Part shown: in pieces, positions 5,169 through 32,203 of the stretch
Layout of the letters: each line of letters opens with the position of its first letter
Numbering within the stretch: the first letter of the stretch is position 1
Assembly (NCBI GenBank): GCA_963812335.1
Contig: CAWEUU010000007.1
Coordinates: forward strand, 19,682-83,681
Length of the DNA stretch: 64,000 bases
Reading direction: 5' to 3'
Source: an uncultured Solirubrobacterales bacterium
Lineage (GTDB): Bacteria > Actinomycetota > Thermoleophilia > Solirubrobacterales > 70-9
The notes under the pieces: generated by a model
What the model saw: only the letters and a program-made list of their open reading frames with translations
Told to the model about the DNA's origin: nothing
Database searches by the model: none
Translations under genes and position numbers: made by a program

Positions 5169-6497
5169 GTGGCGATGTCGGTAGATCTCGGGAAGCTCGA
5201 TCGCGACCATCTCTGGCACCCGTTCACCCAGCAGCAAGGCTGGGTCGAGGAAGAGCCGCTGATGATCGAGCGGGCCGAAGGGGCGCAGCTGATCGACCGG
5301 GAGGGCCGCCGCTACATAGACGGGGTCTCCTCGCTTTGGTGCAACGTCCACGGGCATCGCCACGCGGGCATCGACGCGGCCGTGCGCGAGCAGCTCGAGC
5401 GGGTCGCCCACTCGACCATGCTCGGCCTCTCCCACCCCGGCGCCGCCGAGCTGGCGGCGAAGCTGGTCGAGATCGCCCCGCCGGGGCTCTCGCGCGTCTT
5501 CTACTCCGAGTCGGGCTCGACCGCGACCGAGATCGCGCTGAAGATGGCCTTCCAGTTCCAACAGCAGCGCGGCGGCCAGCACACCCGGCGCACCTCCTTC
5601 GTCCACCTGCGCGAGGCCTACCACGGCGACACGATCGGCTCGGTCTCGGTCGGCGGCATCGGCCTCTTCCACTCGACCTACCGGCCGCTGTTGTTCGAGA
5701 CCCACGCGGTCGAGCCGGGCGAGAGCGCCGATCTCGAGCGGGTCCTGTCCTGCCACGAGGAAGAGGTCGCGGCGCTGATCGTGGAGCCGTTGGTCCAGGG
5801 CGCCGCCGGCATGCTCGTCCACCCGCCCGGCTACCTGCGCGAGGCGCGCGAGCTCTGCGACCGCTTCGGCGTGCTGCTGATCTGCGACGAGGTGGCGACC
5901 GGGTTCGGCCGCACCGGGACGATGTTCGCCTGCGAGCAGGAGGGCGTCACGCCCGACCTGCTCTGCCTTGCCAAGGGCCTCACCGGCGGCTACCTGCCGC
6001 TGGCCGCGACGCTGACCACGGAGCGGATCTACGATGGCTTTCTCGGCGCCCACGAGGACTACCGCACCTTCTTCCACGGCCATACCTACACCGGCAACCC
6101 GCTCGCCTGCGCGGCGGCGCTGGCCAGCCTCGAGGCCTTCGAGAAGGAGGAGACGCTGGAGCGCCTGCAGCCGAAAATCGAGCTGCTCGGCGAGCTGCTC
6201 GAGCCGGTCGCTGCGATGCCCGAGGTCGCCGCGGTGCGCCGCCGCGGCACGATGACCGGCATCGACCTCGGCGAGCACGACCCGGCGCTGCGCCTCGGCC
6301 ACCTGGTGACCCTGGAGGCCCGCAGGCGCGGCGCGATCGTCCGCCCGCTTGGCGACGTGATCATCCTCATGCCCCCGCTCTCGATCTCCGCCGAGGAGCT
6401 GACCCAACTGGTCGAGATCGCCGCCACCTCGATCGAGGCCGCCTGCCGCGACGCCTACCCGGCGAAGGCGCCGGTCCACCTCGCCGAAGCGGCCTAG
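5169..6497 (+). CDS. bioA: adenosylmethionine-8-amino-7-oxononanoate aminotransferase
   Basis: 442 aa class-III aminotransferase. [10 protein letters not shown]-terminus and BioA-like sequence throughout. Confidence 0.93.
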
Positions 6498-6542: not shown

Positions 6543-7016
6543 ATGGCTTACGTTGTCCCCCGCAAGAACGGCAGCTGGGAGATACGCGAGACGCGCACGA
6601 CCCCGGATGGCCCGCGCAGCCGCACGCTGGTGAGCTTTCGCGAGCTCAGCGACGAGGTCATCGCGCAGGCCCAGGACCGGGCCGAAAAGCCGATCGACCC
6701 CGATCAGCTGCGGCAGGCGGCGCTGCACGCCGGCGCACCGCTCGAGCAGTCCGGCGCCGACCGCGCCGCCGCTCAGCTGCTCGAGCAGCTCAGCATGGGA
6801 CGCGAGCCGCGCCGGGCGCTGCGACGCCTGCTCGCCGACGCGGTGAAAGATCAGGACGGCGGCCTCTCCGATGCAGCGCAGGCGGCGCAGGAGTGGGTTG
6901 CCGCGACTCCCCAGGAACGCGGCAAGACGCTGGTCGAACTCCTCCGCCTTGGCGATGCCTTGCCGAAGCGGCGCAGGCCTGATCGCAGCGAGTTCCCCGG
7001 CTTCGGACACGCCTAG
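6543..7016 (+). CDS. hypothetical protein, upstream partner of a nucleotidyltransferase
   Basis: 157-aa ORF with an AT-richer upstream region. Stop lies 3 nt before the next start. No motif I can name. Confidence 0.5.
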   Translation: MAYVVPRKNGSWEIRETRTTPDGPRSRTLVSFRELSDEVIAQAQDRAEKPIDPDQLRQAALHAGAPLEQSGADRAAAQLLEQLSMGREPRRALRRLLADAVKDQDGGLSDAAQAAQEWVAATPQERGKTLVELLRLGDALPKRRRPDRSEFPGFGHA

Positions 7017-7019
7017 CTC

Positions 7020-7580
7020 ATGGCCGAGCTCTCACTGCCCGAGAAAGTCACCGCGGTCGACCGGGCGCTGAGCGAGGCGCGCATCCCGCACGCTTTCGGC
7101 GGCGCCCTCGCGCTGGCCTACTACGCCGAGCCGCGGGTCACGATCGACATCGATATCAACGTCTTCACACCGGCCGAGCGGATCGACGAGGTCAATCTCG
7201 CGCTGGGCCCGCTCGGCGTGCAGACCCTGGAATCGGAGCAGGATCGCCTCGCGTTGGAGCGCGATGGCCAGTGCCGGATCTGGTGGGGGATCACCGCACT
7301 CGACCTGTTCTTCGCGAACGACGAGATACATGCGGTGATGCGCGACGCCGCCCGGCGCGTTCCGTTCGGCGACGACCACATCGATGTCCTCTCCCCCGAG
7401 CACCTCGTCGTCTGCAAGGCCTGCTTCGACCGCCCGAAGGACTGGATCGACATCGAACAGGTGCTGGTCGCCACCGAGCCGTTCGACGTCGCCGAGGTCG
7501 ACCGCTGGCTGGGACGCCTCGGCGAGGACGACCAGCGCAAGCGACGCTTCGACGGACTCGCGCTCGAGCTCAGGGACTGA
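7020..7580 (+). CDS. minimal nucleotidyltransferase-fold protein (MNT/AbiEii-like)
   Basis: 186 aa. HAFGGALALAYY...VTIDIDINVF fits the NTase hG[GS]...DxD pattern. Confidence 0.55.
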   Translation: MAELSLPEKVTAVDRALSEARIPHAFGGALALAYYAEPRVTIDIDINVFTPAERIDEVNLALGPLGVQTLESEQDRLALERDGQCRIWWGITALDLFFANDEIHAVMRDAARRVPFGDDHIDVLSPEHLVVCKACFDRPKDWIDIEQVLVATEPFDVAEVDRWLGRLGEDDQRKRRFDGLALELRD

Positions 7581-18582: not shown

Positions 18583-19686
18583 TCAATCGCCGAAGTCGGC
18601 GCGCGGGACGATGTCCGGATCGCCGCCGGTCCAGGCGGTGAAGCGGTACCAGGCGGGCTTCGCCTCGCGGCCCTCGGTGAGCAACCCGGCCGAGTCGCAG
18701 AACTGGCAGCCCGCTTTGATGTCTGCCCAGGAGAACCACCAGACGCCGCCGATCCGCCAGGAGCGACGATGCCTGGCCAGCATTCCGAAGGCCTGATCGA
18801 GCTCCCTCGCCTGGCCGAGCAGGCCCCGCTCCCAGCGCGTCTGGAAGCTGTCGGAGCCCCAGCCGAGCTCGGTCACGTAAAGCAGCGTGGCGGCATCGTG
18901 ATGACGGCGCATGATCCGGCGCAGGTTGCGGATCTGCGGTCGCATCGCCGCGGCATCGGCGACGTAGGGGTGCAGGGCGACGCCGTCGAAGAAGGGCTTG
19001 ACGCGCCGGGCCCGGTAGACGCGGTTGAGGAAGTCGCCGGAGCTGACGTTTGGCGGGATCTGCAGCGGCCGGCCGAAGAGGCCGCCGAGGATCACCTTGG
19101 CGCCGCGGTCAGCGCGGTGGATGGCGCGACCACTGACCCGTAGCAGCCGCGCGAAGCGCTCCGGGTTCGACCCGGCGGCGAAGGTGATGATGTTGGGCTC
19201 GTTCCAGATCTCCCACCTGCGGATCGGCAGCGCCGTCAGCCCGGGGTTCTCGCGCCAGAAGGCGCCCCGCGGTCCGTAGCGGCGCACCGCGCGGCGCAGA
19301 AAGGATGCCCAGGCCCGACGCGCCCAACCCCGATAGACGGGTTCGACCCGCGTCTCGCCGGCAACCCACGGCGGCGTGCCCCAGACGAAGGGGAAGACCC
19401 GCATCCCGTGTTCGGCGGCAAGCTGCACCGAGCGGTCGAAGTCGGACCAGTTCGGGGCGACCAGATAGGGGCTGTGCGGCTCGACGCCGCTCCAGTAGAG
19501 CGGCAGCCGCAGGCTGCGCAGCCCGGCCGACTGCATCAGCGCGAAGTCGCCCTTGTTCGATGCGGTCTGCGGCGAGATGCCGACGAATTCCGCCGGCAGA
19601 CGCGCAGAGGCGGTCGCCGGCAGCATCAGCAGCGCCGCGAGCAATGCGGGAATTGCGAGCTTTCGGATCAAGAGCACTGATTGCAA
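18583..19686 (-). CDS. secreted glycoside hydrolase (clan GH-A-like)
   Basis: 367 aa with a signal peptide (LLMLPATASA). WEIWNEPN acid/base motif typical of GH5/GH39-type TIM-barrel glycosidases. TTG start. Confidence 0.6.
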   Translation of the reverse strand: MQSVLLIRKLAIPALLAALLMLPATASARLPAEFVGISPQTASNKGDFALMQSAGLRSLRLPLYWSGVEPHSPYLVAPNWSDFDRSVQLAAEHGMRVFPFVWGTPPWVAGETRVEPVYRGWARRAWASFLRRAVRRYGPRGAFWRENPGLTALPIRRWEIWNEPNIITFAAGSNPERFARLLRVSGRAIHRADRGAKVILGGLFGRPLQIPPNVSSGDFLNRVYRARRVKPFFDGVALHPYVADAAAMRPQIRNLRRIMRRHHDAATLLYVTELGWGSDSFQTRWERGLLGQARELDQAFGMLARHRRSWRIGGVWWFSWADIKAGCQFCDSAGLLTEGREAKPAWYRFTAWTGGDPDIVPRADFGD

Positions 19687-19732
19687 ACGCGGACCGCAGC
19701 CAAAGTAGCGGCCTGGGATAATCGCCGCTCAT

Positions 19733-19806
19733 CGGGGCGTGGCGCAGCCTGGTAGCGCGCACCGTTCGGGTCGGTGAGGTCCCCGGTTCAAATCCGGGCG
19801 CCCCGA
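19733..19806 (+). tRNA. tRNA-Pro (anticodon CGG)
   Basis: Hand-folded cloverleaf. Acceptor CGGGGCG/CGCCCCG, D-stem GCGC/GCGC, anticodon stem CACCG/CGGTG with loop TTCGGGT, T-arm CCCGG-TTCAAAT-CCGGG, discriminator A. 74 nt, no encoded CCA. Confidence 0.9.
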
Positions 19807-19809
19807 TTG
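19794..19809 (+). repeat. attL-like direct repeat (tRNA-Pro 3' end)
   Basis: CCGGGCGCCCCGATTG is identical to 28386-28401. Confidence 0.65.
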
Positions 19810-20117
19810 GCAGCATCCCCCCGTCGTGCCTGGCACCACCCCGCACAGCCGCACCACATCAGGCACGACGGGGCGGTCTTGCGGGGCGATGCGGGGGCAT
19901 CTGTGATGCAGGTGTGATGCACCGCGGTCCCGCCGAGTGATGCACCCCCGACCGCGCTGCCGGACGATCGAGGCTGCCGGGCGGCTGGACCCGCGCGCAG
20001 CGGTGGCGCTCAAGTTGGCCGAGGCGTTCGGTATGGAGGTGCCCGCAGGGAAGCCAGCCGTCGAGCCGCTGGTCGCTCGCGCCGCCTAGTCTTGAGCGCG
20101 ATGGGGCGCAGCCGCAC

Positions 20118-20654
20118 ATGACGAGCCAGCGAAATGGATCGGAGATCATCGGCAGGGAGCGCCAATGGGATGCCGCGATCACGAAGCAGCTCCCCGATCT
20201 TCTGACCCGGCTTCTGGACTCGCCGATCTATGGACTTGGCGAGGGGCGCGAGCTACCGCCAGCGGCCTACGGCGTGTACCTGTTCTCGGAGCGGGGGAAG
20301 CCCCGCTACGTCGGCCGGGTGGGGCTGACGGAGCGCTCCAAGCGCGCGGGCAAGAAGTTCTCGAACTTCCGCACGCGCCTTCGAGGTCACGTCCGACCTC
20401 GCCACAACGAGGGCACCTACGCCTACGCGCGGACCGTGCGGAGCTTCCACCGGAAAAGGAAGCCGCTCGCCGGAACCCGGAGGGAGAACTGCGCTGACCC
20501 GGAGTTCGTGGCGGAGTTCCGTCGCCAATGCGAACGGATCGCGCGCTGGGACTTCCAGGTAGTTGAGATCACCGACAACCGCCTCGCCGCAGTCTTTGAG
20601 ATTTACGCGGCGACGGTGCTTGGGCTGCGCCACCAGACGTTCGCGGTTAGCTGA
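20118..20654 (+). CDS. GIY-YIG-like nuclease-domain protein
   Basis: 178 aa. YGVYLFSERGKPRYVGRVG matches GIY-(10-11 aa)-YIG spacing, with later R, N and E (FEIY) candidates. Confidence 0.6.
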   Translation: MTSQRNGSEIIGRERQWDAAITKQLPDLLTRLLDSPIYGLGEGRELPPAAYGVYLFSERGKPRYVGRVGLTERSKRAGKKFSNFRTRLRGHVRPRHNEGTYAYARTVRSFHRKRKPLAGTRRENCADPEFVAEFRRQCERIARWDFQVVEITDNRLAAVFEIYAATVLGLRHQTFAVS

Positions 20655-20700
20655 AGGTGGCGGCGCCCCCAGCGAACCGAGCGGTGCCGCTGACTTTCTA

Positions 20701-21055
20701 ATGGCCTCGCCCGCGGACCCCGCTATAAACCCCTCCTACGTGGAGGCTGAGGGGCTTGCAGGGGAGGCCAAGGACGCAGAGGGGGCGCGAGTCGTCCTTC
20801 CGGCGCGCGTCTGGAATGGCAAGCTGCTGCGTGACCACCCCGAGCTCGAGGCCCACCAGGCCGACGTGCTGCGAGCCGTCAGCGAGCCCGATCACGTCGC
20901 CGTCGATCCGGTCTACGCGGATCGCCGCCGTAACTATCTGAAAAGAGGCCGGGCCGAGCCGCTGGCTGCTGGTGGTCGTAAGCTATGAGCAAGAACCGGC
21001 GCGGATCATCTCTGCGTTCGGCAACCGGAAGGACCCGCCGTCATGGAGCGAGTGA
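20701..21055 (+). pseudogene. small toxin-like protein, frameshifted (partner of the DUF2283-like gene)
   Basis: Frame 1 from the ATG at 20701 reads ...LLRDHPELEAHQADVLRAVSEPDHVAVDP...RRNYLKRGRAEP and stops at 20986-20988. A second frame, open from 20942, reads RWLLVVVSYEQEPARIISAFGNRKDPPSWSE* and ends at 21053-21055, overlapping the next ATG. Confidence 0.55.
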
Positions 21056-21330
21056 AGATCAGGATCGGGCCAGTTACCTTCGACCAGGCCGACTACGACG
21101 CCGAGCACGACGTGCTCTATCTGCACGTCGGCGAGCCTCAGGAGGGAGAGGGCGAGGAGACGCCCGAGGGGCACGTCATCCGGTACCTGCCAGGCACTCG
21201 CCGAATTGTCGGCCTGACCGTGCTCGGCCCGCGCCGCATCCTCGACCGCGACGGCAATCTGCGCATCACCATCCCGGAGTCGATCGAGGCGAGCGCCGAC
21301 GACCTGGCTCCGGCGCTTGCAGCGGTCTGA
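21043..21330 (+). CDS. DUF2283-like small protein (putative antitoxin)
   Basis: 95 aa. DYDAEHDVLYLHVGEP resembles the YDxExDxLYI signature of DUF2283, from memory. Confidence 0.7.
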   Translation: MERVKIRIGPVTFDQADYDAEHDVLYLHVGEPQEGEGEETPEGHVIRYLPGTRRIVGLTVLGPRRILDRDGNLRITIPESIEASADDLAPALAAV

Positions 21331-21384
21331 CGCTGGGCGACTCTACGCGTGCTTCGTGGCGAGGATGCCGCTTAGAAACACAGC

Positions 21385-21414
21385 GCCCCGCCGGGCTGGC
21401 TTGCCGGGCGGGGC
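21385..21414 (+). terminator. GC-rich hairpin downstream of the DUF2283-like gene
   Basis: GCCCCGCC (21385-21392) pairs with GGCGGGGC (21407-21414). There is no U-tract, so function is uncertain. Confidence 0.35.
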
Positions 21415-22591
21415 TTAAGGTGAACTGACTCCAAGTTCCCCCGACACTTCCGGGGGATCGATAGCCCTTCGAAGCGAGACAGCCCCCGACCCAGCTGGGT
21501 CGGGGGCTGTCCGCGCTGCGACTCAGGCTCCTGGCTTCACGCCAATGAAGTTCAGAAAGGGAGTCGCATGACCAAGGATGACGTGCTGTTCGGCTACCGC
21601 CAAGCCCTCTTCGCGGAGGCCGCGAGGACAAGCGTTGCTGCGGCCTGCCGGCGCTTCGGGGTGCACCGCTCTACCTACTACGGCTGGAAGAGGGCCGTCG
21701 AGCGCCATGGCCTCGAGGTGCTGCGCCCCAGGGAGCGCCGGCGCCCCAAGATGCCCAACCAGCTGCCGAAGATGGTCGAGGAGCGGATCCTCAGCTTCTC
21801 GATCGCCCACCCGGGGCTCGGTCCCAAGCGCATCGCCGGGGAGCTGCGTCGTTCCAAGTGGGGCGCGATCGTGGTCTCGCCCAACGGCGTCTGGAAGGTG
21901 CTCTGCCGCCACGGCCTCAACACCCGAGCCAAGCGCCTGGGGCTGGTGGCGGGCTACGCGGCGCCCTACGAGCCACCCCGGGATCCCGGCCCAGAGGGCC
22001 ATATCGATGTCTCCCGACCCGGCGAGCTGGTCGGGATCGACTGCTTTTACGTCGGGCGGCTGCGCGGCACAGAGGGCAAGGTCTGGCAGCTCACCGCGAT
22101 CGACGTCGCCTCCTCCTTCGGCTGGGCGGAGCTGGTGGTCGCCAAGAGGGCAACCCGGTCGGGCGGCAGACCTCAAAGCTCGCGCGGCGGGTCGCCGCTC
22201 ATCTGGAGACTGCGGGCTGGCGCCTGGAGCGCTTGCTCTCCGACAATGGCAACGAGTTCAAGGGCGAGTTCACCAAGACGGTGGAAGACCTGGGTGCCCG
22301 CCACACCCGGATCCACGCCGGGCGGCCGCAGACCAACGGCAACGTCGAGGCCCTGCACAAGACGATCCTCGACGAGTGCTGGCGGCCTGCCTTCGCCCGC
22401 TACTTGCAGCCTCGCCTGAGCGGCCTCAAACGGGAGCTCGACACCTACCTGCGCTTCTACAACTTCGACCGAGTTCACCATGGCCGCCTGACCGGCGGCC
22501 AGATCCCGGCGGACATCGTCTACGGTGCCCGCAAGATGGAGGTCAGATGAGCCTGGGGTGTCGGCACATCTTGGAGTCTGTCCAGCTTAAG
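21414..22591 (+). mobile_element. IS481-family insertion sequence, decayed, with CTTAAG flanks
   Basis: 34-nt imperfect terminal inverted repeats (21414-21447 versus the reverse complement of 22558-22591, 27/34 identical, shared GACTCCAAG and CCGACAC). The palindromic CTTAAG at both outer ends is a possible 6-bp target duplication. Confidence 0.75.
21568..22550 (+). pseudogene. IS481-type DDE transposase (integrase core), one frameshift
   Basis: Track ORFs 21568..22419 (HTH, ...IDCFYVGRLRGTEGKVWQLTAIDVASSFGWAELV) and 21858..22550 (...LLSDNGNEFKG...GRPQTNGNVEALHKTILDECW...) join if one G is added near 22148-22152. Confidence 0.8.
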
Positions 22592-22863
22592 GTCCGGACC
22601 AAACTGTGCCTATGCCTTGCGGATCGCAATCCTTCTAGCTCGCCACTTGGCGACGAAGGCTTCTCCGAGGGGTTGGGGCATAGTCCAACTTGTCCTCTAC
22701 GGCGGGGTGTCCTTGTTGGCATCGCGCCAGGGACGGCACCCGCAACCAGCACTCTCTCAAACGCTCCGGCGGCAAAAGTCACCGTGGCGACCACGGCCGC
22801 GACGGAGATCCCCAGCGTTGTGCCTTTGACCCAGCTCACGCCGAAGACAGCAGCGGTGGACTC

Positions 22864-23172
22864 TCACGAGCTGAGGAGCCGCCAGAGACGAATCAAACGG
22901 TTGCGTGGCCGCCAGCCCTTCTCAAGCGGGTCCGCCGCGTCAACTCTCGGATTCGGTTCCCAATAGCGCAGGTCAATGAGCCACGCGCTGTCCCAGCCGT
23001 CCGTGAATGGATCGAGCGCCGCAGTTCGTACCTCGATGTCCATAGCTGCGAGTTGCGCTTCGTACGCTCGGGCATATCGTGGCCACACCTCCTCACCCCA
23101 GCGCCTCCTTCTCCACTCACGAAACCGCGACTCAAAGGCCGATCCAGTTCCAGACTCCCAGTCGAGCCGCAT
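22864..23172 (-). CDS. hypothetical small protein (weak call)
   Basis: 102 codons from the ATG at 23172 inside track ORF 22864..23739. W/R-rich, with no recognisable motif. Confidence 0.3.
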   Translation of the reverse strand: MRLDWESGTGSAFESRFREWRRRRWGEEVWPRYARAYEAQLAAMDIEVRTAALDPFTDGWDSAWLIDLRYWEPNPRVDAADPLEKGWRPRNRLIRLWRLLSS

Positions 23173-23534
23173 GACCGGAGTCAGCGGCCTGTGATGACGC
23201 AGGGGACCGCCCGGGCGGCGGCGCGCCAGGTTCGCGTCCTCTACAGCGTCCTCTTGTGCCAAGAGCACGGCCTCTGACGCGTCGGGTTTTCCGCTCGCCG
23301 TTTCCTGTGCTCCGTGCTTCTCGCCGCGCTCCGCCAATTGTCGCCGGTTGTTCCTCGGTGGAATCCTAGACTGGCCTTCGGAAGCTCTCGCTCGCGCGAA
23401 CCTGAATCTGAGGTAGACAAGCACCACAGAGGCGACACTGGTTTCTCCCGAGGGTCGAGAACGCTCGGAGAGCTGAGCGCCACATGTAAGGTCGGCGAAG
23501 AGGGCTGGGCGACGGGATCGAGTCGGGAGCATCC

Positions 23535-25871
23535 ATGGCGGGGTCAGACACTTTTCGGGGCATCTCCTTCCAGGCCGCGTATGCAGTCGGACTTGCGCTT
23601 GACGTCCTCGAAGGCAAAGGCGAGACGTTGGTGCTCGAGGGCACCGCTGATGTCGTCGACGCAGCGATCCTGGGAGCCGGCCGTGAGCCGTCGCTGACGG
23701 TCCAGGCGAAGACGAAGATGGAGCCCTACTCGTGGGCACCTGCCGAGCTATCGAAGGTCCTGAATGGCTGGCTGGGGACGAGCCCGTCTCGGACCTCCCG
23801 GCTTGAGTTCGTCACCGATGGTTCATTGGGGCCGGAAGTTGTCGATGATCTGCGTCCCGCACTCCGGCGACTGGCCGAAGGTACCCTCGGACCGAAGGAT
23901 CGTGAGTACCTGAAGAAGAAGGGTCTCGATCCGACCGAGAAGGCCCTCGGCCGAGCTGCGATTAAGAGTCGCCTGCCAGGGGGCAGGGAACTATTGGAGG
24001 AAGCGACGCTCCGCTTCCTCGCCTTGCATGAGCGTGTCGGCCAGATGCAGGTCGAGGAGGCTCGCGACGTGATCTTCCGCCTGTTCAGTGAGACGGTGCT
24101 CGGCTCGGGCGAGCTGGAGCCGAGCAGTCGCGAGCTGAGCCGCCTGCAGATCGCCGAGCTGGTCGGCCTACCGCTCGAGACCATCGATACGGCCGCCCCG
24201 TGGTCGGAGGAGGTCGAGGCGCGCTACAAGGACGCGCTCAAAGAGATGCCGCTCGGCCCGGCCTGGACGCTGCTGGACATGTTGGAGGCCGAGCGCCCAC
24301 CGGCCCTGGCGTTCGTGAAGGCCGGTACCGGCGACGGCCAGGACACACCTATACCGGCCCTCAAATTGTTCGACCTCGGACAACACCTGTCCTTGATCGG
24401 AGCAGCCGGCTCAGGCAAGACGACGACGTTCGCGCAGATCGGCGCCCTGGCAATCGAACACGGAGCGCTTCCGGTCTCGCTTCGCCTCCCGAGCTATGAC
24501 GGCCGCTTCGAGCCAGCACTCACCCGAGCGCTGGAAAGAGTTCTCGGAGCCCCGATAGCTCCGGGGGTCGCATCGATCCTTATGGGCCGCGAGGACGTCG
24601 TGATCCTCCTTGACGACGTCACCGAGCTCGTGCCCGATCAGCGACGAGCACTACTCGAAGACGTTCGAAGGCTCACGACGAGCGGAGCAAAGGCGAGATT
24701 CATCCTCGCCGGTCGCGACGCCGCTGGGCTCACCTCGATGACGACCGCCATCTACTCGCTTGTCGGGCTGGTCCCCGAGAGTCGTCGTGAGATTGCCGCT
24801 TCGCTCATCGAGGATCCCGAAAATGCCGTACTCGACATCGAAGAGCAGCTGGGAGATCTGGCCGACAATCCTCTGCTCTTCACGATGGCGCTCGCATTGC
24901 GGACGCGAGGCATCGGCGCCTCCAACCGCGCCCAACTCTTCGATGGCTTCCTCACTGGGCTTGAGCATCGTGAGGAGGGCGAGCGATTGGGCTTCGCCGA
25001 GCGGGCCTGCCTCGAGGTCGCGTGCTACGAGCTCGTCACCGAAGGTCGCTACAGCGCGGAGGAGTGGTGGTGGATCGAGCGATTCTCGGCTGCAAGACAA
25101 GAGCTGATCGAAGAAGGAACTATCGCCGGGGACACGGCAGCGGCCGAGGGGCTGATTCAGGGAGTGAAGCGCCTGGGGCTACTTCAGGTGATCGCCGGGA
25201 GCGCGGAGATCGGGCTTCTCCACGACCTCTTCTGCGACTGGTTGGCATCCGGGGCGATTTCCAGAGGTCAGCGCAGCCTTCACGACCCTGTCCCGCGCAA
25301 TCATGAGGAGGCCGCCGCGTTCCTCGTCGAGCGCGGACCGCTGAGCGATGCCCAGACCCTCGCCGTGGCGGGCAGCATCGTCGCGGCTGCACGGGTGGCC
25401 GACGCATCCGAAGCCGGGGCGATCGATCCGCTAATGGCCGATCAGGCCTGGCAGTGCCTGAGGGAGCAGTTCGGGGCGAAGCTTGCAGGCCGCCTCGACT
25501 CGCTTCATCTCCATTGCGCACTCGCGTCACCGACGCTGGCCTATCTGGGCGTGAGCGAGCCGACGGGCGCAGTCGAGCCGTTGCCCGACTCCCCCCTCTC
25601 CTGCGTTCCTCGCAGTCCCGCCTCCTCGCTCTCGGTCGCCGTCGACCTTTGGTTTTCGGCCGTCCGCCTGGTAGTTGAACCGGCGGGTTTGGGAGGTGTC
25701 GCCTCCGGTCCCCGAGGACGCGACGGAGCTCGCCGCGGAGATGGAGAGGGTCGCCGATCAGCGCGAGGCCGCGTTCGTCGCGCTGATGGAGGAGCTAGCT
25801 CCTTCGCTGATCGAGCGGGCAAGAGAAGAGGTCCCGGGGGGCTCGATCCTCGGCTGGGTCCTCCCCAGTGA
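23535..25871 (+). CDS. STAND/NACHT-like P-loop NTPase with N-terminal PD-(D/E)xK (Cap4/DUF4297-like) nuclease domain
   Basis: GGGAG lies 5 nt upstream of the ATG. N-terminus GISFQAAYAV...LEGTADVVDA...VQAKT has a G-x-FQ / E..D / QxK layout. Walker A GAAGSGKTT at 24399; Walker B VVILLDDV at 24597; NPLLFTMAL after the NTPase core. The last ~65 codons look out of frame. Confidence 0.75.
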   Translation: MAGSDTFRGISFQAAYAVGLALDVLEGKGETLVLEGTADVVDAAILGAGREPSLTVQAKTKMEPYSWAPAELSKVLNGWLGTSPSRTSRLEFVTDGSLGPEVVDDLRPALRRLAEGTLGPKDREYLKKKGLDPTEKALGRAAIKSRLPGGRELLEEATLRFLALHERVGQMQVEEARDVIFRLFSETVLGSGELEPSSRELSRLQIAELVGLPLETIDTAAPWSEEVEARYKDALKEMPLGPAWTLLDMLEAERPPALAFVKAGTGDGQDTPIPALKLFDLGQHLSLIGAAGSGKTTTFAQIGALAIEHGALPVSLRLPSYDGRFEPALTRALERVLGAPIAPGVASILMGREDVVILLDDVTELVPDQRRALLEDVRRLTTSGAKARFILAGRDAAGLTSMTTAIYSLVGLVPESRREIAASLIEDPENAVLDIEEQLGDLADNPLLFTMALALRTRGIGASNRAQLFDGFLTGLEHREEGERLGFAERACLEVACYELVTEGRYSAEEWWWIERFSAARQELIEEGTIAGDTAAAEGLIQGVKRLGLLQVIAGSAEIGLLHDLFCDWLASGAISRGQRSLHDPVPRNHEEAAAFLVERGPLSDAQTLAVAGSIVAAARVADASEAGAIDPLMADQAWQCLREQFGAKLAGRLDSLHLHCALASPTLAYLGVSEPTGAVEPLPDSPLSCVPRSPASSLSVAVDLWFSAVRLVVEPAGLGGVASGPRGRDGARRGDGEGRRSARGRVRRADGGASSFADRAGKRRGPGGLDPRLGPPQ

Positions 25872-26106
25872 GGAGTACCCCGGTGTGCCGGGAACCGGAG
25901 AGACGATCCGCGACAACAAGGTCCTCTATCGAAACACGACTGGAATCACCCACATCGAGGCGGTCGGGAGTGAGGACGAGGTTCCCGACCTCGACGAGGC
26001 CGGCTGGATGACCGCATCCGCTTTTGTGCGCGAGCGTCCATCAGCCTATGCGAAGAAGCGAGTCCGCACGGCGTTCTCCCACCTAATGAGGAGATTCGAT
26101 GGCTAG
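25675..26106 (+). CDS. hypothetical protein, or the displaced C-terminus of the STAND protein
   Basis: This frame reads protein-like from ~25690 (SPPVPEDATELAAEMERVADQREAAFVALMEEL...) while the upstream frame degenerates to R/G-rich sequence. Internal start candidates are the GTG at 25696 and the ATG at 25741. Confidence 0.5.
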   Translation: MNRRVWEVSPPVPEDATELAAEMERVADQREAAFVALMEELAPSLIERAREEVPGGSILGWVLPSEEYPGVPGTGETIRDNKVLYRNTTGITHIEAVGSEDEVPDLDEAGWMTASAFVRERPSAYAKKRVRTAFSHLMRRFDG

Positions 26107-27142
26107 GTCGATCTGGACGGTGGCCTCCGAGCTGGCCGAAGGGCTGCGCGAGACGCCGCAGATGCATAACTTCAGGCGGGCCTTCGATGATCAGGATCTG
26201 CGTGTCCGACTGAGCCATCTGACCGCCATCTACAGCGCCCTGCGCGAGCACGAGATCCTGCTCGGCACCCGACTCAATCGGATGGGCTCCGTAGTCGAAC
26301 CCTGGGTCGAATCGGAGGAAGACCGTGAGTGGCTCGAAAGTGCGATCGAGTCGGGCGATGGGTTTCAGGTCGCGATCGAGTATCTCCGCTCATACCTGCC
26401 GAGATATCCCCACCTGCGGGTCCCACACCTCCGGCGGGGGTCGCCGCTCGACTTTGCCGACGGTCCGCTATTGATCGACTACTTCCCCTGGCAACGCGAG
26501 ATCCGTGCCTTGCAGTTCGAACCCGACAAGCCGCCGCAGCTATCGCGACTTGGCGGCGAGAACTTCACGGAGCTTCTGCGCGAGCTCGCAGGAGGACTCA
26601 AGGAAAGAGACAGCTGGCGTCGCTTCGCAGCGGCGCGGAATGAGATGAGCGAGCAAGACTGGGCCGCTCTCAACCAGATCTCAAGCGACTTTTCTCAGCG
26701 AGTCAAGCAGGAGGTGGTGGACGCCGAAGCCGGTCATTACCTCACGGAGCGCTTCGCCTACCGGATGGCCGAGCTCAATCGAGCCGTCGAATCCGCCGAA
26801 GGGCAGCCGCGTGAGTACCTGGCCAGCTTCGAGGCAATCCATGAGTTGATCACGGTCGTCGCCGGCTTCATGGAAACGCTGATCATCAAGGGCCACCTCC
26901 CGCTGATCACGCCCTACCGGATGGACATCGGGCCCGGCCGGGACCTGCGACGGGCCGAGCTTGCGACGTTTGGCGACGATCCGTTCGACAGTGGCGGTGG
27001 GGTCCTCTTCGTGGAAGGTCCCGACGAGGGCTCACACGGCCTTCTATACGCGACGGGTCATACTCACCGCTGGCCGAGGCTCAATCAGCCCGAGCGTTCG
27101 ACGATGGTGGTCGAGGGTTGGTTTGTCCGCGAGCAGATCTGA
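26099..27142 (+). CDS. hypothetical protein (347 aa), third gene of the island operon
   Basis: GAGGAG lies 5 nt upstream. The ATG overlaps the upstream stop (ATGGCTAG). Balanced, mostly helical-looking composition with no motif I can name. Confidence 0.65.
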   Translation: MARSIWTVASELAEGLRETPQMHNFRRAFDDQDLRVRLSHLTAIYSALREHEILLGTRLNRMGSVVEPWVESEEDREWLESAIESGDGFQVAIEYLRSYLPRYPHLRVPHLRRGSPLDFADGPLLIDYFPWQREIRALQFEPDKPPQLSRLGGENFTELLRELAGGLKERDSWRRFAAARNEMSEQDWAALNQISSDFSQRVKQEVVDAEAGHYLTERFAYRMAELNRAVESAEGQPREYLASFEAIHELITVVAGFMETLIIKGHLPLITPYRMDIGPGRDLRRAELATFGDDPFDSGGGVLFVEGPDEGSHGLLYATGHTHRWPRLNQPERSTMVVEGWFVREQI

Positions 27143-27372
27143 CGCGGGCGGCGACAAACGTCGGCAGGTAACGAGCTCCTTTACTGGTCCGACCGCACGG
27201 CCGCGAATCAGGTCCGCGATCTGCTTCTCGTAGCGCTTCCAGGCTGGATCGGCCATCTCGGCATTCTCGCCAGTCGCAGTGCGCAGGGCTATGCGCGGAT
27301 AACGTCGACCTGTTGTCGTAGGACTTATGAGGGAGCTCTACTCGATGAGTAGCGCGGTTACAGTCGTGCTCG

Positions 27373-28149
27373 ATGGATAGCGGCTGCGTCTTCTGTGGTC
27401 GAACGCCGGTCTCTCGGGAGCACCTGTGGCCAGATTGGCTGCGGCGAGAGGCCGCGATCAGCGAGCGGTTCGATCACCGGATTGAGCAGGAGGCGGACGG
27501 TCTTGAGACGCGGGATGTGGAGTTCAGCACACCGCCGTTCAACCAGGTCGTAAAGGCCGTCTGCGCGCCGTGCAACGGGGGTTGGATGTCGAGCATCGAG
27601 GCCGGTGCCAAGCCGATCTTGCAGGACTTGGTCTATGCGCGCGGGTGCACTCTAGACATGGATGAGCAGCGCAGACTTGCGACCTGGGCATTCCTGAAGG
27701 TGTGCGTCTTCGATGAGCTCCACCCGCAGGAGCGAGTGGTGCCTGCGGAGCATCGCCGTCGTTTCTTCACGTACCGGCAGCCGCCCGCGGCGGGCGTCGC
27801 GATCTGGCTGGGCACATACGAGGCGCTCGAGGTCGGGCACTACGCCTACCAGGGACTCAGGATCGGACGTCAAGGACTACCGGAACCGGAGGAGCCGAAT
27901 ATCTACGTAGTCACGATCACCATGGGAGCGCTGATCGTCCAAATCGCCGGCAGCCTGCTCCCAGGCCTTCGTGTCGATGATGTCCCATACCCGCCCGAGT
28001 TGCACCTCGCCAAGATCTGGCCCAGAACACGCGACAGCGAGGCATTGCCACAAGACCACGTCATGAACCACGACACGCTTGTGGGCTTTACAAAGATGCT
28101 CTACAACGTGATCGGCCATATCGCCGGCGGTACTCCGCCCGCCCGATAG
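27373..28149 (+). CDS. HNH-like (HNH_5-type) zinc-finger endonuclease-domain protein
   Basis: 258 aa. N-terminus CVFCGRTPVSREHLWPDWL ... CAPCNGGW has the CxxC...EH...CxxCN layout of HNH/EndoVII nucleases. Confidence 0.55.
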   Translation: MDSGCVFCGRTPVSREHLWPDWLRREAAISERFDHRIEQEADGLETRDVEFSTPPFNQVVKAVCAPCNGGWMSSIEAGAKPILQDLVYARGCTLDMDEQRRLATWAFLKVCVFDELHPQERVVPAEHRRRFFTYRQPPAAGVAIWLGTYEALEVGHYAYQGLRIGRQGLPEPEEPNIYVVTITMGALIVQIAGSLLPGLRVDDVPYPPELHLAKIWPRTRDSEALPQDHVMNHDTLVGFTKMLYNVIGHIAGGTPPAR

Positions 28150-28385
28150 TGTCCTCTATCGCGGCGTCTGAGGCCAGCCTGCCAGAGCTCTTCGTCGAGA
28201 GGCCTACTGGATCACTGAGATCCTGCGCATGATCGCCGAGGTGCTTTTGGGATGTCGCTCAGCGCGAACGCTCCCGAGTCTCGACATAGCCGCGGCCAGA
28301 AGTTCATCGGCCACGGATCTGCTCTGGATCTGGCATGCAAATGGCATGCAACCGTCTGAAATCCCACTTCTCATGCCAAGTTGAA

Positions 28386-28401
28386 CCGGGCGCCCCGATT
28401 G
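28386..28401 (+). repeat. attR-like direct repeat
   Basis: CCGGGCGCCCCGATTG is identical to the tRNA-Pro 3' end at 19794-19809. Flanks are also similar (GTTGAA versus GTTCAAAT; GCAGC follows in both). Confidence 0.65.
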
Positions 28402-28422
28402 CAGCGACCGACCGAAGGCAGC

Positions 28423-28995
28423 TCAGAGGCCGAGATCGCGGACGCCGCGCTCGTCCCAGCCGAGGTGGTGGGCGATCTCGTGGCGGACCGTGCGCTCGAC
28501 CTGGGCCCGCAGCAGCTCGGGGTCGTGGCCGAAGTCGCGCTCCAGCGTGTCGCGGTAGATGACGATGTGGTCCCGGTAGTCGTCGCGGGCGACGGTGTCG
28601 CCGATGTAGTGGCCGTAGGCGCGGTGCAGGCGGCCGAGATGGGAGACAACGATAGGGATCCCCTCGACGACCTCGCGCAGGTCCTCCGGCAGGCTGTCAA
28701 TCGCCGCCACGACCAGCTCGTCGAACTCGCTCAGCGGCTGCTCGGGCGGTGGCAGCCTGGCCAACGCTTCGCTGCGATCGGAAAGGCGGCGGAACTCGCG
28801 CTCGGGCATCTCGTCGCCGAGCAGCATCACCGTCACCCAAGCGGTGATCAGGACGACCGCGGCGATGCCGGCGAGCAGCGCCAACAGGTCGCCGATACCC
28901 CCGAACGAGGGCGGGTGGAGCAGCAGCATCGCCAGCCCGACGATGAACGCGGTCAGCGCACCTGCACGCAGGGGTGGCCCTAGCGTCTCCTTCAT
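28423..28995 (-). CDS. zinc metallopeptidase (Zincin_1/DUF1025-like) with N-terminal TM segments
   Basis: 190 aa with a C-terminal HEIAHHLGWDE HExxH motif. Confidence 0.75.
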   Translation of the reverse strand: MKETLGPPLRAGALTAFIVGLAMLLLHPPSFGGIGDLLALLAGIAAVVLITAWVTVMLLGDEMPEREFRRLSDRSEALARLPPPEQPLSEFDELVVAAIDSLPEDLREVVEGIPIVVSHLGRLHRAYGHYIGDTVARDDYRDHIVIYRDTLERDFGHDPELLRAQVERTVRHEIAHHLGWDERGVRDLGL

Positions 28996-29546: not shown

Positions 29547-30943
29547 TCAGACCGACTCTGCGAGCAGGCGGACGCCGCGCTCGATCGCCGGCTCGGAGAG
29601 GTTGGCGAAGCCGAGCACCAGACCGGGACGCCCGGCAGGCGCGAAGCGGTGCAGTGAGAGGCCGTCGAGGCCCACCCCACGACCGGCCGCAGCGGCAACG
29701 AGGCCCGACTCGTCGGTGCCCCCTGGCAGTTCGACCAGCTCATAGAGGCCGGCGGCTCCGGCGCCGGCCCGGGCCTGCGGCAGGTGGCGCGCCAGCGCCC
29801 CGAGTAGGGCCGCGCGACGGTGCTGGTAGCGCAGACGGGTGCGCCGGATGTGGCGGTCGAGCTCGCCGCGTTCGATGAAGTCGTGCAGGGCGAGCTGGCC
29901 CACCGCCTCCGAGCCACCGTCCTCGACCGCCTTCGCCTGGATCAGCGGCCAGGCCAGCCAGGAGGGCAGCAGCACCCAGCCGAGCCGCATGCCCGGCGTC
30001 AGCCGCTTGCTCGCCGATCCGACGTAGGCGACCCGGTCCGGCGCCAGTCCCTGGAGGGCGCCGAGCCCGGCGCCGTCGTAGCGGTACTCGGCGTCGTAGT
30101 CGTCCTCGATGATCAGCCGCTCGCCCTCTTCCGCCCACTCGACCAGCGCCGCCCGCCGCTCGCGGCTGAGCACCGCCCCGGTCGGGAACTGGTGCGCGGG
30201 GGTGACGACCACGGCGCTCGGCCCGCGTGGCCTCGAGCGCATCGACCTGGATTCCGGCGGCATCGACCGGAACCGGCGCCACCGCCAGCCCCGCCGCTTC
30301 GACGATCAGGACGGTGCGTGTGCCAGCCGGGGTCCTCGAGCGCCACCCGCTCGACCCCGCGCGCCGCCAACCAGCGGCAGATCAGCGAGAAGGCCTGTGC
30401 GAAGCCGGTGCTGATCATCGTCTGCTCGGGCTCGGCGGCGACGCCGCGCACGCGGCCGAGATAGCCCGCAAGCGCCTCACGCAAGACGGGGACACCGCGG
30501 GGATCGGGGTAGCCGACGGCGTCGATCGGCGCCTGCCGCCAAGCTGCCCGCAGCGAGCGCAACCAGCGATCGCGGGGGAAGCCGGCAAGATCGGGCAGCC
30601 CTGGATGGAAGTGATACGGAAAGCTGGGCAGCATCGAGCGCGCCGGCGGTCGCTCCGCGGCCGCACGCACCGTGCGCGCCACCCGCACCGGCGCGCCCTG
30701 GCGGCTGCCGCGGTAGCCATCGGCGACGAGCTGACCGTAGGCCTCGCTGACGACGCCGCGCGAGACTCCCAGCTCCCTGGCCAGCGCCCTGCTCGAGGGC
30801 AGTGCCGCCCCGGCGGCGAGACGACCCGCCTGGATCCCCTCCCTGATCGAGCTCTCGATCTGCTCGTGTAAGGGCAGCTCGCTCTCGCGCCGCAGCTCGA
30901 CCAGCATGCCCGGTCCGCCAACTGGACCTTTTGAATACGCCAT
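29547..30943 (-). pseudogene. MocR-type GntR-HTH / PLP aminotransferase-fold regulator, two frameshifts
   Basis: Three track ORFs in three frames read through as HTH (LPSSRALARELGVSRGVVSEAY), ...VALEDPGWHTH | LIVEAAGLAVAPVPVDAAGIQVDALEATRA | AVVVTPAHQFPTG...SASKRLTPGMRLGW. Shifts lie near 30305-30312 and 30215-30225. Confidence 0.75.
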
Positions 30944-31010
30944 TACTGGAACTGTATATCGAGCCAGTCGCAGCCTAGAGTGAATCCCTCCACCGCAGCA
31001 GGAGGACGTT

Positions 31011-32203
31011 ATGGAGCAGCACAGCGGCAAAAACGGCAAATCGACGATCGCGATCGTCGGCGGCGGCCTGGCCGGCCTGACCGCGGCTATCGCCTGTTCG
31101 GAGAGCGGGCCGCAAGGTGCGCCTGCTTGAGGCGCACGATGCACTCGGCGGGCGCGCCCGCGCCAAGGCCGGCCCCTACAAGGCCAACCTCGGCCCCCAC
31201 GTCATCTACAAGGACGGCCCCTTCTGGGACTGGCTCGCGGAGCGCGACCTGCTGCCCGCCTACGCGGGCCCGCCGCTCTCCGGCATCCGCTTCCGCTGGC
31301 AGGGCAGGGCGCGGCGCATGCCGCCGCTCGGCAGCGTCCCCGCAGTGCTGCGCCTGCGGGGCCGCGAGGCGCCCGTCGACGTCGACTTCCGCAGCTGGGT
31401 CAGGGCCCACAGCGACGAGCGCACCGCGGCGATGCTCTCGGCCGCCGCCGGCGTCTACACCTTCCACCACGACCCCGGCGAGCTCTCCGCCGCGTTCGTC
31501 TGGCGGCACTCGGTGCGGGTTCTGCTCAGTCCCCCGCCGACCGCGCGCTACCTGATCGGTGGCTGGAGATCGCTTGTCGACACGCTGGAGGCACGCGTGC
31601 GGGCGCTCGGGGTCGAGGTTGAGACCGGGCACAACGTCACGGCTCTGCCCGGCGGCCCGACGATCGTCGCCACTGAGCTTGACACCGCTCGCACCCTGCT
31701 CGGCGACCGACTCGCTCGTCTGGCCCAGCGGCAACACCCTCTGCCTCGACCTCGGTCTGCGCCGTCGCCGCAGCGACCCTTTCGTCGTCTCCGACCTCGA
31801 CCAGGCCGGCTGGCTCGAGCGCTTCAGCGCCGCCGACCCCTCACTCGCACCCGCGGGCGAGGAGCTGGTCCAAGCCCAGCTGCCGCTGCGGCCCGGTGAG
31901 GGCGCCGAGGCCGCGGCGCTGCGCCTCGACCGGCTGATCGACGCCTCGCTGCCCGAGTGGCGCGAGCGCGAGACCTGGCGGCGGCGGCAGCTGATGACCG
32001 CGCGCACGGGACCGCTCGATTACCCCGGCAAGACTTGGCGTGACCGCCCGGCGATCGATCGCGGCGGCGGCGTCTTCCTCGCCGGCGACATGGTCGCCGC
32101 GCCCGGGCTGCTCTCCGAGGTCTCCTGGGCGAGCGCGGTCGAGGCGGCGGAGCTCGCGGCTGCCGCTAGCTCACCGCGTCGATCGCCCGCTCTATCCGGT
32201 TGA
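31011..32203 (+). pseudogene. FAD-dependent oxidoreductase (amine-oxidase / phytoene-desaturase-like), two frameshifts
   Basis: GGAGGA upstream. MEQHSGKNGKSTIAIVGGGLAGLTAAIACSESG then stops at 31128. It continues in another frame as KVRLLEAHDALGGRA..., and shifts again near 31708 to DSLVWPSGNTLCLDLGL...GGVFLAGD. Confidence 0.65.

Follow-up and report, generated by a model that had tools for sequence, protein, structure and literature searches.

Comparison with described mobile elements

Cis-mobilizable elements (CIMEs) keep their attachment sites, attL and attR, after the integrase gene has been lost (PMC5704250). An island that resembles them lies at the tRNA-Pro(CGG) gene of an uncultured Solirubrobacterales bacterium, at positions 19810–28401 of a 64-kb stretch of contig CAWEUU010000007.1 (the whole stretch analyzed, hereafter the window). 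An earlier note on this DNA had described it as an integrase-less island bounded by a 16-bp direct repeat. Like the CIMEs of the ICESt1/ICESt3 family of ICEs (integrative and conjugative elements) in Streptococcus thermophilus, it has attL and attR flanks, lacks integration and transfer genes, has relatives in tandem and carries accessory cargo (PMC5704250). At the level of sequence, attL and attR are both retained, with exact cores and with arms that match the consensus of the family, and tandem arrays are present in two of the related loci (L013 and L014). As for an origin from an ICE or an integrative and mobilizable element, no remnants of int or tra genes were found, and decay is evident in the cargo. 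Unlike the ICESt1/ICESt3 CIMEs, the island resides in an Actinomycetota host and targets tRNA-Pro(CGG), and neither a cognate ICE or integrase nor a remnant of a mobility gene was found.

Three other types of described elements offer useful comparisons. The H47 island of Escherichia coli (the microcin H47 system) excises and integrates by trans-acting functions, which has been called a "parasitic strategy" (PMC3191183). The island in the window is likewise small, bounded by direct repeats and devoid of a recombinase gene. However, H47 has long, imperfect repeats that do not correspond to a tRNA 3' end, and its mobility was demonstrated by experiment, whereas mobility is deduced here. AICEs (integrative and conjugative elements of actinomycetes) use a tyrosine integrase and insert into the 3' ends of Actinomycetota tRNA genes via an identity segment, with a long attP located beside int (PMC2440964). 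In contrast to AICEs and other pSAM2-like elements, the island has no int, xis, rep, tra or nudix genes (neither a replication initiator, nor an FtsK-like Tra, nor a regulator was detected), and its identity segment is 14–16 bp. Without the genes that define AICEs, it does not belong among them. In the tycheposon arrays of Prochlorococcus, successive insertions at one tRNA gene leave partial tRNA copies between them, and degenerate, integrase-poor material accumulates at that gene, as it does here (10.1101/2020.12.28.424599). However, tycheposons are defined by a tyrosine or serine recombinase of their own and a replication module, neither of which occurs in the elements seen in this work.

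A base-precise insertion at tRNA-Pro(CGG)

The island was acquired horizontally by site-specific recombination. Contigs from the same species were found through an exact look-up of the ferritin protein encoded in the left flank, which gave ten metagenome contigs. In four contigs (L001, L002, L004 and L005), the site is empty and the junction reads ...GGTTCAAATCCGGGCGCCCCGATTG|CAGCGACCGACC..., such that window position 19809 is joined to 28402 (...GGTTCAAATCCGGGCGCCCCGATTGCAGCGACCGACCGAAGG... in L001). Both flanks are 97–98% identical to the window in BLAST comparisons with these four contigs, and the two alignments overlap by exactly the repeat. The insertion of 19810–28401 is base-precise and amounts to 8,592 bp, i.e., one copy of the repeat plus 8,576 bp. 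Because the empty junction is exactly as predicted, the insertion was precise and site-specific. The gene order in L001 (60 kb), L004 and L005 is Zincin_1, tRNA-Pro(CGG), a 364-aa gene and ferritin, with about 150 bp separating the Zincin_1 gene from the 364-aa gene. In the window, the Zincin_1 metallopeptidase gene (PF06262; 28423–28995, minus strand) is the core-genome gene of the right flank, and it adjoins tRNA-Pro in these three empty-site contigs.

The tRNA-Pro(CGG) gene on the plus strand, which is the integration target with attB in its 3' end, is intact (19732–19807 by ARAGORN; 19733–19806 by Rfam RF00005, 59.5 bits), and its 3' end has been duplicated as a direct repeat. Exact copies of the 16-mer CCGGGCGCCCCGATTG are located at 19794–19809 (attL core, plus strand) and 28386–28401 (attR core, plus strand), 8,592 bp apart. 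The 16-mer runs through the 3' strands of the T-stem and the acceptor stem and through the discriminator base to 3 nt beyond it. There is no third site in the window, even when two mismatches are permitted, and the probability of a second exact copy arising by chance in 64 kb would be about 1e-4 as estimated from base composition. A stretch of 14 nt within this region, CCGGGCGCCCCGAT, is common to all related sites. The sequences flanking the two cores are also alike, with GTTCAAAT and GTTGAA upstream and GCAGC downstream in both. On the left, the core genome resumes with a gene divergent from the tRNA gene (18583–19677, minus strand), which encodes a secreted PslG-like glycoside hydrolase with a signal peptide and a WEIWNEPN motif. 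The latter has 1536 homologues, some named PslG, and serves as a marker of the locus across Solirubrobacterales; its synteny with tRNA-Pro is kept in L001 and in the orthologous loci L016–L021.

More distant relatives, which were reached via orthologues of this glycoside hydrolase, carry other genes at the same spot and never the island of the window. For this reason, a gain in the lineage of the window is the parsimonious reading. The composition of the island also deviates from that of the core genome. The GC content is 0.652 for 19810–28385, compared with 0.698 in the left flank and 0.683 in the right flank. At third codon positions (GC3), the island genes range from 0.76 to 0.84, compared with 0.909 ± 0.033 in 44 core genes of the window (z = −2 to −4.4). 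GC3 is host-like (0.88–0.90) in the copy of an insertion sequence (IS) of the IS481 family located within the island.

Most of what the earlier note had proposed for this locus agrees with these results. The exact 16-bp repeat at the tRNA 3' end is present in two copies only, the flanks of the repeats resemble each other as described, and the lower GC content of the DNA between them is apparent in both GC and GC3. The empty site that the note had suggested looking for, with the tRNA gene joined directly to the metallopeptidase side, exists in the four same-species contigs. Relatives carrying the same genes without the repeats, which the note had named as grounds for doubt, were not what was found, as the relatives lack the island. 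Together with the deviating composition, the base-precise empty site bears out its proposal of horizontal acquisition.

The window differs from L001 and L004 in a second segment (29549–32161; 2.6 kb, GC content 0.73). It holds genes for an FAD-oxidoreductase and a GntR-aminotransferase, with the latter split into overlapping open reading frames (ORFs) at 29547–30263 and 30113–31144. This segment was considered as another island and rejected. Because it is kept in the distant relatives L017, L019 and L020, and because the L001 junction shows microhomology, the difference is a deletion in the L001 lineage.

Search for a recombinase

No recombinase gene was detected in the island. A six-frame Pfam scan of 19700–28450, with stop codons replaced by X and a threshold of E ≤ 1, gave no match to Phage_integrase, Resolvase, Recombinase or any other site-specific recombinase; the only related matches were to the helix-turn-helix (HTH) and rve domains of the IS481 type. 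Searches of every island ORF against NCBIfam, PADLOC and PHROGs likewise found no recombinase, and sequence searches against the PDB returned nothing relevant. Unlike a typical tRNA-associated island, this one has no integrase gene of its own. The earlier note had reported no integrase, recombinase or excisionase ORF and had suggested a search for integrase remnants; the six-frame scans agree with its observation and found no remnant.

In the rest of the window, no recombinase was found where checked, i.e., among the ORFs at the left end, TruA, RpoA and the Pfam-annotated syntenic contig L001. A ribosomal-protein/SecY/RpoA/TruA region, part of which was judged by gene sizes alone, seems to make up the right third of the window. 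The gene divergent from the tRNA gene was examined as an intI-like recombinase and rejected, as it encodes the secreted PslG-like glycoside hydrolase described above. For a helper element, four scans of IMG/VR with arm and core patterns yielded chance matches only (e.g., a repetitive coding region in L072), and a BLAST search with the reconstituted attP found no match among INPHARED phages or PLSDB plasmids.

Arms of the attachment sites and related elements

Both ends of the island carry sequences that resemble the arms of an attachment site. On the island side of attL, a P'-type arm (19810–19950, plus strand) includes an inverted repeat (19810–19832/19860–19882) and, at 19903, 19914 and 19937, three copies of the direct repeat GTGATGCA, whose starts are 11 and 23 nt apart. 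Over its first 140 nt, the island shows homology to the corresponding ends of the L019 island and of the third L013 element. The repeats occur there as three copies of GTGATGCA in L019 and three copies of GTGACGCA in L013, and the 11/23-nt spacing is identical. A 50-aa ORF (19937–20089) begins in the third GTGATGCA repeat and contains ...RLDPRAAVALKLAEAFGMEV.... By eye and without Pfam support, it is similar to the C-terminal half of an Xre-type HTH and may represent a truncated regulator, an excisionase remnant or nothing.

Ahead of the attR core, a P-type arm (28286–28385, plus strand) contains two GGCATGCA repeats 11 nt apart (28332 and 28343). The attR junction AAGTTGAACCGGGCGCCCCGA, an exact 21-mer, was searched in public genomes and metagenomes, which returned two Solirubrobacterales metagenome-assembled genomes (L012 and L013) and one metagenome contig (L014). 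A fourth match (L015), in AT-rich DNA, was dismissed as due to chance. Over about 100 nt ahead of the core, conservation is 77–88% in L012, at two sites in L013 and in L014, beside upstream genes that are unrelated. Among all sequence fetched, an nhmmer profile of the P arm matches only the window, L012, L013 (twice) and L014 (twice). The diverged copy in L014 keeps the pair with 11-nt spacing in a changed sequence (GGGACGCA/GGGACGCG). Moreover, GKSATGCA has eight matches in the 64 kb, of which five, all on the plus strand, are no more than 140 nt away from the two cores. The P arm is unsupported as a structured RNA or single-stranded DNA: there is no Rfam match besides the tRNA, the RNAalifold covariation term is positive, and DNA folding z-scores of −0.05 to −2.4 indicate no significant single-strand fold. 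Among AICEs, pSAM2 uses a tRNA-Pro gene, and its arms bear GTCACGCAG-type repeats that resemble GTGA(T/C)GCA.

Including those above, at least five other integrase-less elements with one or both arms are located at tRNA-Pro(CGG) in other Solirubrobacterales, partly in tandem. Their cargo is unrelated to that of the island in the window and includes AbiE, RES-type and DUF5615/DUF433/Mrr genes. L013 is a tandem array that reads tRNA-Pro, AbiEi/AbiEii, arm and core, a RES-toxin pair, arm and core, P' arm, response regulator and histidine kinase. L012 carries DUF5615/DUF433 and an Mrr-type nuclease, and L014 has two successive small cassettes. The L019 island is complete at 4.7 kb, encodes only HTH-type and small uncharacterized proteins, and has its empty site in L021. 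An integrase is absent from all six arm-bearing elements seen, three of which were seen end to end. In the second cassette of L013 (1.8 kb, with the RES-toxin pair), ARAGORN predicts a tRNA-Glu(UUC) gene (5475–5546, plus strand).

The 3' side of tRNA-Pro(CGG) is a general hotspot. In the orthologous loci L016–L021, the occupants include PhdYeFM-PIN, PemK, ORF6N and a 1712-aa WD40/pentapeptide protein; none bears an integrase, and arms are absent except in the L019 island. The 1712-aa protein (L018, 4537–9675, on a 2.5-Mb contig) combines Metallophos, NA-iREase3, pentapeptide and WD40 repeats, and no arms were detectable beside its gene.

Both arms look complete and are common to other integrase-less elements at the same tRNA gene, and an integrase supplied in trans may therefore still be able to excise the island. 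The earlier note had regarded it as immobilized or decayed. The decay holds as far as the cargo is concerned, with three frameshifted genes and an IS, whereas immobilization appears less certain in view of the two arms.

Origin of the island

In its circular form, the island would contain an attP of about 260 bp, composed of the P arm (28286–28385), the 14–16-bp core and the P' arm (19810–19950). Such an attP, with direct repeats on both sides of the core, would have the arrangement that a heterobivalent tyrosine integrase is expected to use. At the 3' end of tRNA-Pro(CGG), conservative site-specific recombination with strand exchange inside the CCGGGCGCCCCGAT core would have rebuilt the tRNA gene and left the core as a direct repeat. 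The enzyme would be an integrase of the lambda/AICE type, supplied in trans by a helper element. We thus regard it as probable that this is a CIME-like, att-intact and integrase-less island placed by a heterobivalent tyrosine integrase that it does not encode; both the class of the recombinase and its supply in trans are what we infer. Supply in trans is favored because every arm-bearing element seen is integrase-less while the arms stay conserved. Several points weigh against this explanation. Relatives are represented by only six elements, three of them whole, and this small sample may be biased, as integrase-bearing copies may assemble poorly. One genome scan and one metagenome scan were made with the exact 21-mer, and the loci returned were few and short. 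An integrase with matching arms was found nowhere in IMG/VR, INPHARED, PLSDB or the genome and metagenome scans. The repeats are assigned as putative arm-type sites from their position and periodicity. Two of the L013 cassettes have no P' arm, so these cassettes are more than small-scale versions of a single attP design. Finally, the broken genes, the IS without target duplication and the 0.94-kb stretch without genes fit the loss of an own integrase after arrival equally well.

Such a loss is the alternative that deserves most attention, although we consider it rather unlikely. It holds that an autonomous AICE- or prophage-like element lost int, along with any xis, rep or tra genes, by a deletion perhaps linked to the IS481 copy, and that the island is a dead remnant whose relatives decayed in parallel. 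The definition of CIMEs as decay products agrees with this view (PMC5704250), as do the three frameshifted genes and the IS, the lack of a recognizable target duplication at the ends of the IS and the geneless 0.94 kb that adjoins it. Moreover, the older hotspot cargo in L016–L021 has no detectable arms, so attachment sites do decay at this locus. However, the scan of all six frames at E ≤ 1 found no remnant of an integrase, the two arms are complete and agree with the consensus of the family, and parallel loss would have to account for all six arm-bearing elements, including the three seen end to end. In addition, since strains with 98% identity lack the island, it arrived recently. An integron-like platform, in which a recombinase encoded on the host chromosome stacks small cassettes at the 3' end of tRNA-Pro(CGG), each with a conserved recombination site (P arm plus core) some 115 bp long, is improbable. 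The tandem cassettes of 1.8–1.9 kb in L013 and L014, which each end in an arm and core and lack a P' arm, are what such a platform would produce; their toxin-antitoxin-type cargo is also known from chromosomal integrons, and no element seen has an integrase. However, the gene at the position of intI is the glycoside hydrolase, no recombinase occurs within the checked parts of the 64 kb, and the arm shows neither a significant single-strand fold nor covariation. Neither an adjacent intI nor folded attC cassette ends were found, and the island of the window, the L019 island and the third L013 element have a P' arm like that of an ordinary attP. An origin other than site-specific integration is more improbable still. 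The repeat would then be due to chance or to a target duplication by a transposase or casposase, or else an ancestral island would have been deleted in the relatives. A DDE transposase is indeed encoded inside the island, and the 3' end of tRNA-Pro is the target of some casposons, which make duplications of 14–15 bp. However, the island is not bounded by terminal inverted repeats, the IS481 copy is delimited by ends of its own inside the island, and six-frame Pfam scans of 19700–28450 found no Cas1 or PolB. The repeat corresponds to the tRNA 3' end, and elements in other genomes have it in common with the island, along with the adjoining 100 nt or so of the arm. In four contigs, the island is missing to the exact base, and its genes are also missing from distant relatives. 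Transposition, chance and deletion in the relatives are contradicted by these observations.

Cargo genes and their decay

All genes of the island are on the plus strand, and its cargo is accessory and defense-like, with a STAND NTPase and its partner, a Cys-rich protein and a toxin-like pair. Three genes are frameshifted (the transposase, the toxin-like gene and the STAND NTPase), and one IS481 copy is present. The gene labels in the earlier note hold to different degrees. The IS is confirmed and belongs to the IS481 family, the STAND label has weak matches and the toxin-pair label sub-threshold ones, and the GIY-YIG and HNH-like labels correspond to motifs without support from Pfam, NCBIfam, PADLOC or the PDB.

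In the STAND-type P-loop NTPase gene (23535–26106, plus strand), a 1-nt insertion (GAG>GTAG) interrupts the reading frame at about 25671, with the tblastn frame change at 25670/25675; homologues of 856 aa span both ORFs. The NTPase has weak matches to AAA_16, AAA_22, NACHT and Cap4 and to LmuA/mad8, with the N-terminus weakly Cap4/LmuA-like. The adjacent gene (26099–27142, plus strand), which overlaps the NTPase gene by 8 nt, encodes a 347-aa partner with no family match in Pfam, NCBIfam, PADLOC or PHROGs. The pair, comprising the NTPase and a 347/348-aa protein, recurs on other contigs. In L022 (10001–13613), the pair lies beside a 349-aa gene, and the element that carries it also encodes a large serine recombinase and a Replic_Relax protein, which suggests a mobile, uncharacterized defense-type module.

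Downstream, a 258-aa Cys-rich protein (27373–28149, plus strand) has invariant EHLWPxW and CxxCNxGWM motifs and is HNH-like at the motif level only. It has about 70 homologues, nearly all in Solirubrobacterales, one of which is named an HNH endonuclease by UniRef. The AlphaFold2 model is confident (pLDDT 82.5, pTM 0.86), and a Foldseek search against the PDB found no match (best E 0.13, TM-score <0.2) and no recombinase fold. As judged from this model, the family may have an undescribed fold around an HNH-like Cys4/His/Asn motif.

At the other end of the island, a 178-aa ORF (20118–20654, plus strand), coding by GC3, has a GVY...YVG motif reminiscent of GIY-YIG. It has no match in Pfam, NCBIfam, PADLOC, PHROGs or the PDB, and the exact protein is not on record. 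The toxin-like gene (20701–21055, plus strand) is weakly PBECR2/RelE-like and is frameshifted near 20950 in an A-run; the frame-repaired protein matches PBECR2 with E = 0.009, below the cut-off. Its end is overlapped by the start of a gene (21043–21330, plus strand) for a small DUF2283-like protein, a putative antitoxin partner (E = 8.6e-4, 19.9 bits versus a cut-off of 23), which also matches phrog_36767.

The IS481-family insertion sequence (21409–22596, plus strand) has imperfect terminal inverted repeats of 39 nt, and no target duplication was recognized at its ends. Between the repeats lies an HTH and DDE (rve) transposase gene (21568–22550), which is frameshifted at about 22140; NF033577 (transpos_IS481) matches both halves, and rve_3 and HTH_28/32 are also found. 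A perfect palindrome of 17 + 17 nt (GACAGCCCCCGACCCAG/CTGGGTCGGGGGCTGTC; 21478–21511) is present within the IS, upstream of the transposase start. The following 0.94 kb or so (22597–23534), with a GC content of 0.635, have no convincing gene, no clear coding phase and no Pfam match in any frame, and could be a remnant from an IS-associated deletion.

In the left flank of the island, an AbiEii/NTP_transf_5-like nucleotidyltransferase gene (7020–7580) is preceded by a 157-aa ORF, and together (6543–7580) they probably form a toxin-antitoxin pair of type IV that is resident there. Genes like these adjoin NUDIX in L020 and L021.

Implications for Solirubrobacterales

These findings refine the earlier description: the island belongs to a group of integrase-less elements with intact att sites, which stack at tRNA-Pro(CGG) in Solirubrobacterales. 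The occupied and empty sites, at 98% identity, form a clean before-and-after pair in a lineage that is uncultured and poorly studied. The tRNA-Pro(CGG) gene is a recurrent landing pad for defense and toxin-antitoxin cargo on elements without an integrase of their own. Within this cargo, the 856-aa STAND NTPase, its 347-aa partner and the 258-aa protein may constitute an uncharacterized defense module, inactivated in the window. A more speculative possibility, which we consider doubtful, is a Solirubrobacterales cassette-capture system at tRNA-Pro(CGG), with small integrase-less modules of toxin-antitoxin or defense genes that each carry only a conserved site of about 115 bp and with a dedicated recombinase from the host or a master element that inserts and stacks them. 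If true, it would represent an integron-like or "miniature integrative element" lifestyle new for Actinomycetota, of which the 8.6-kb island would be a larger member. If the arms are confirmed as binding sites, a P arm some 100 nt in length, the core CCGGGCGCCCCGAT and GTGAYGCA in three copies with 11/23-nt spacing would make up a searchable signature. Such a signature would provide a handle for the helper integrase, as well as for the frequency of "hitcher" islands beyond Firmicutes and Proteobacteria.

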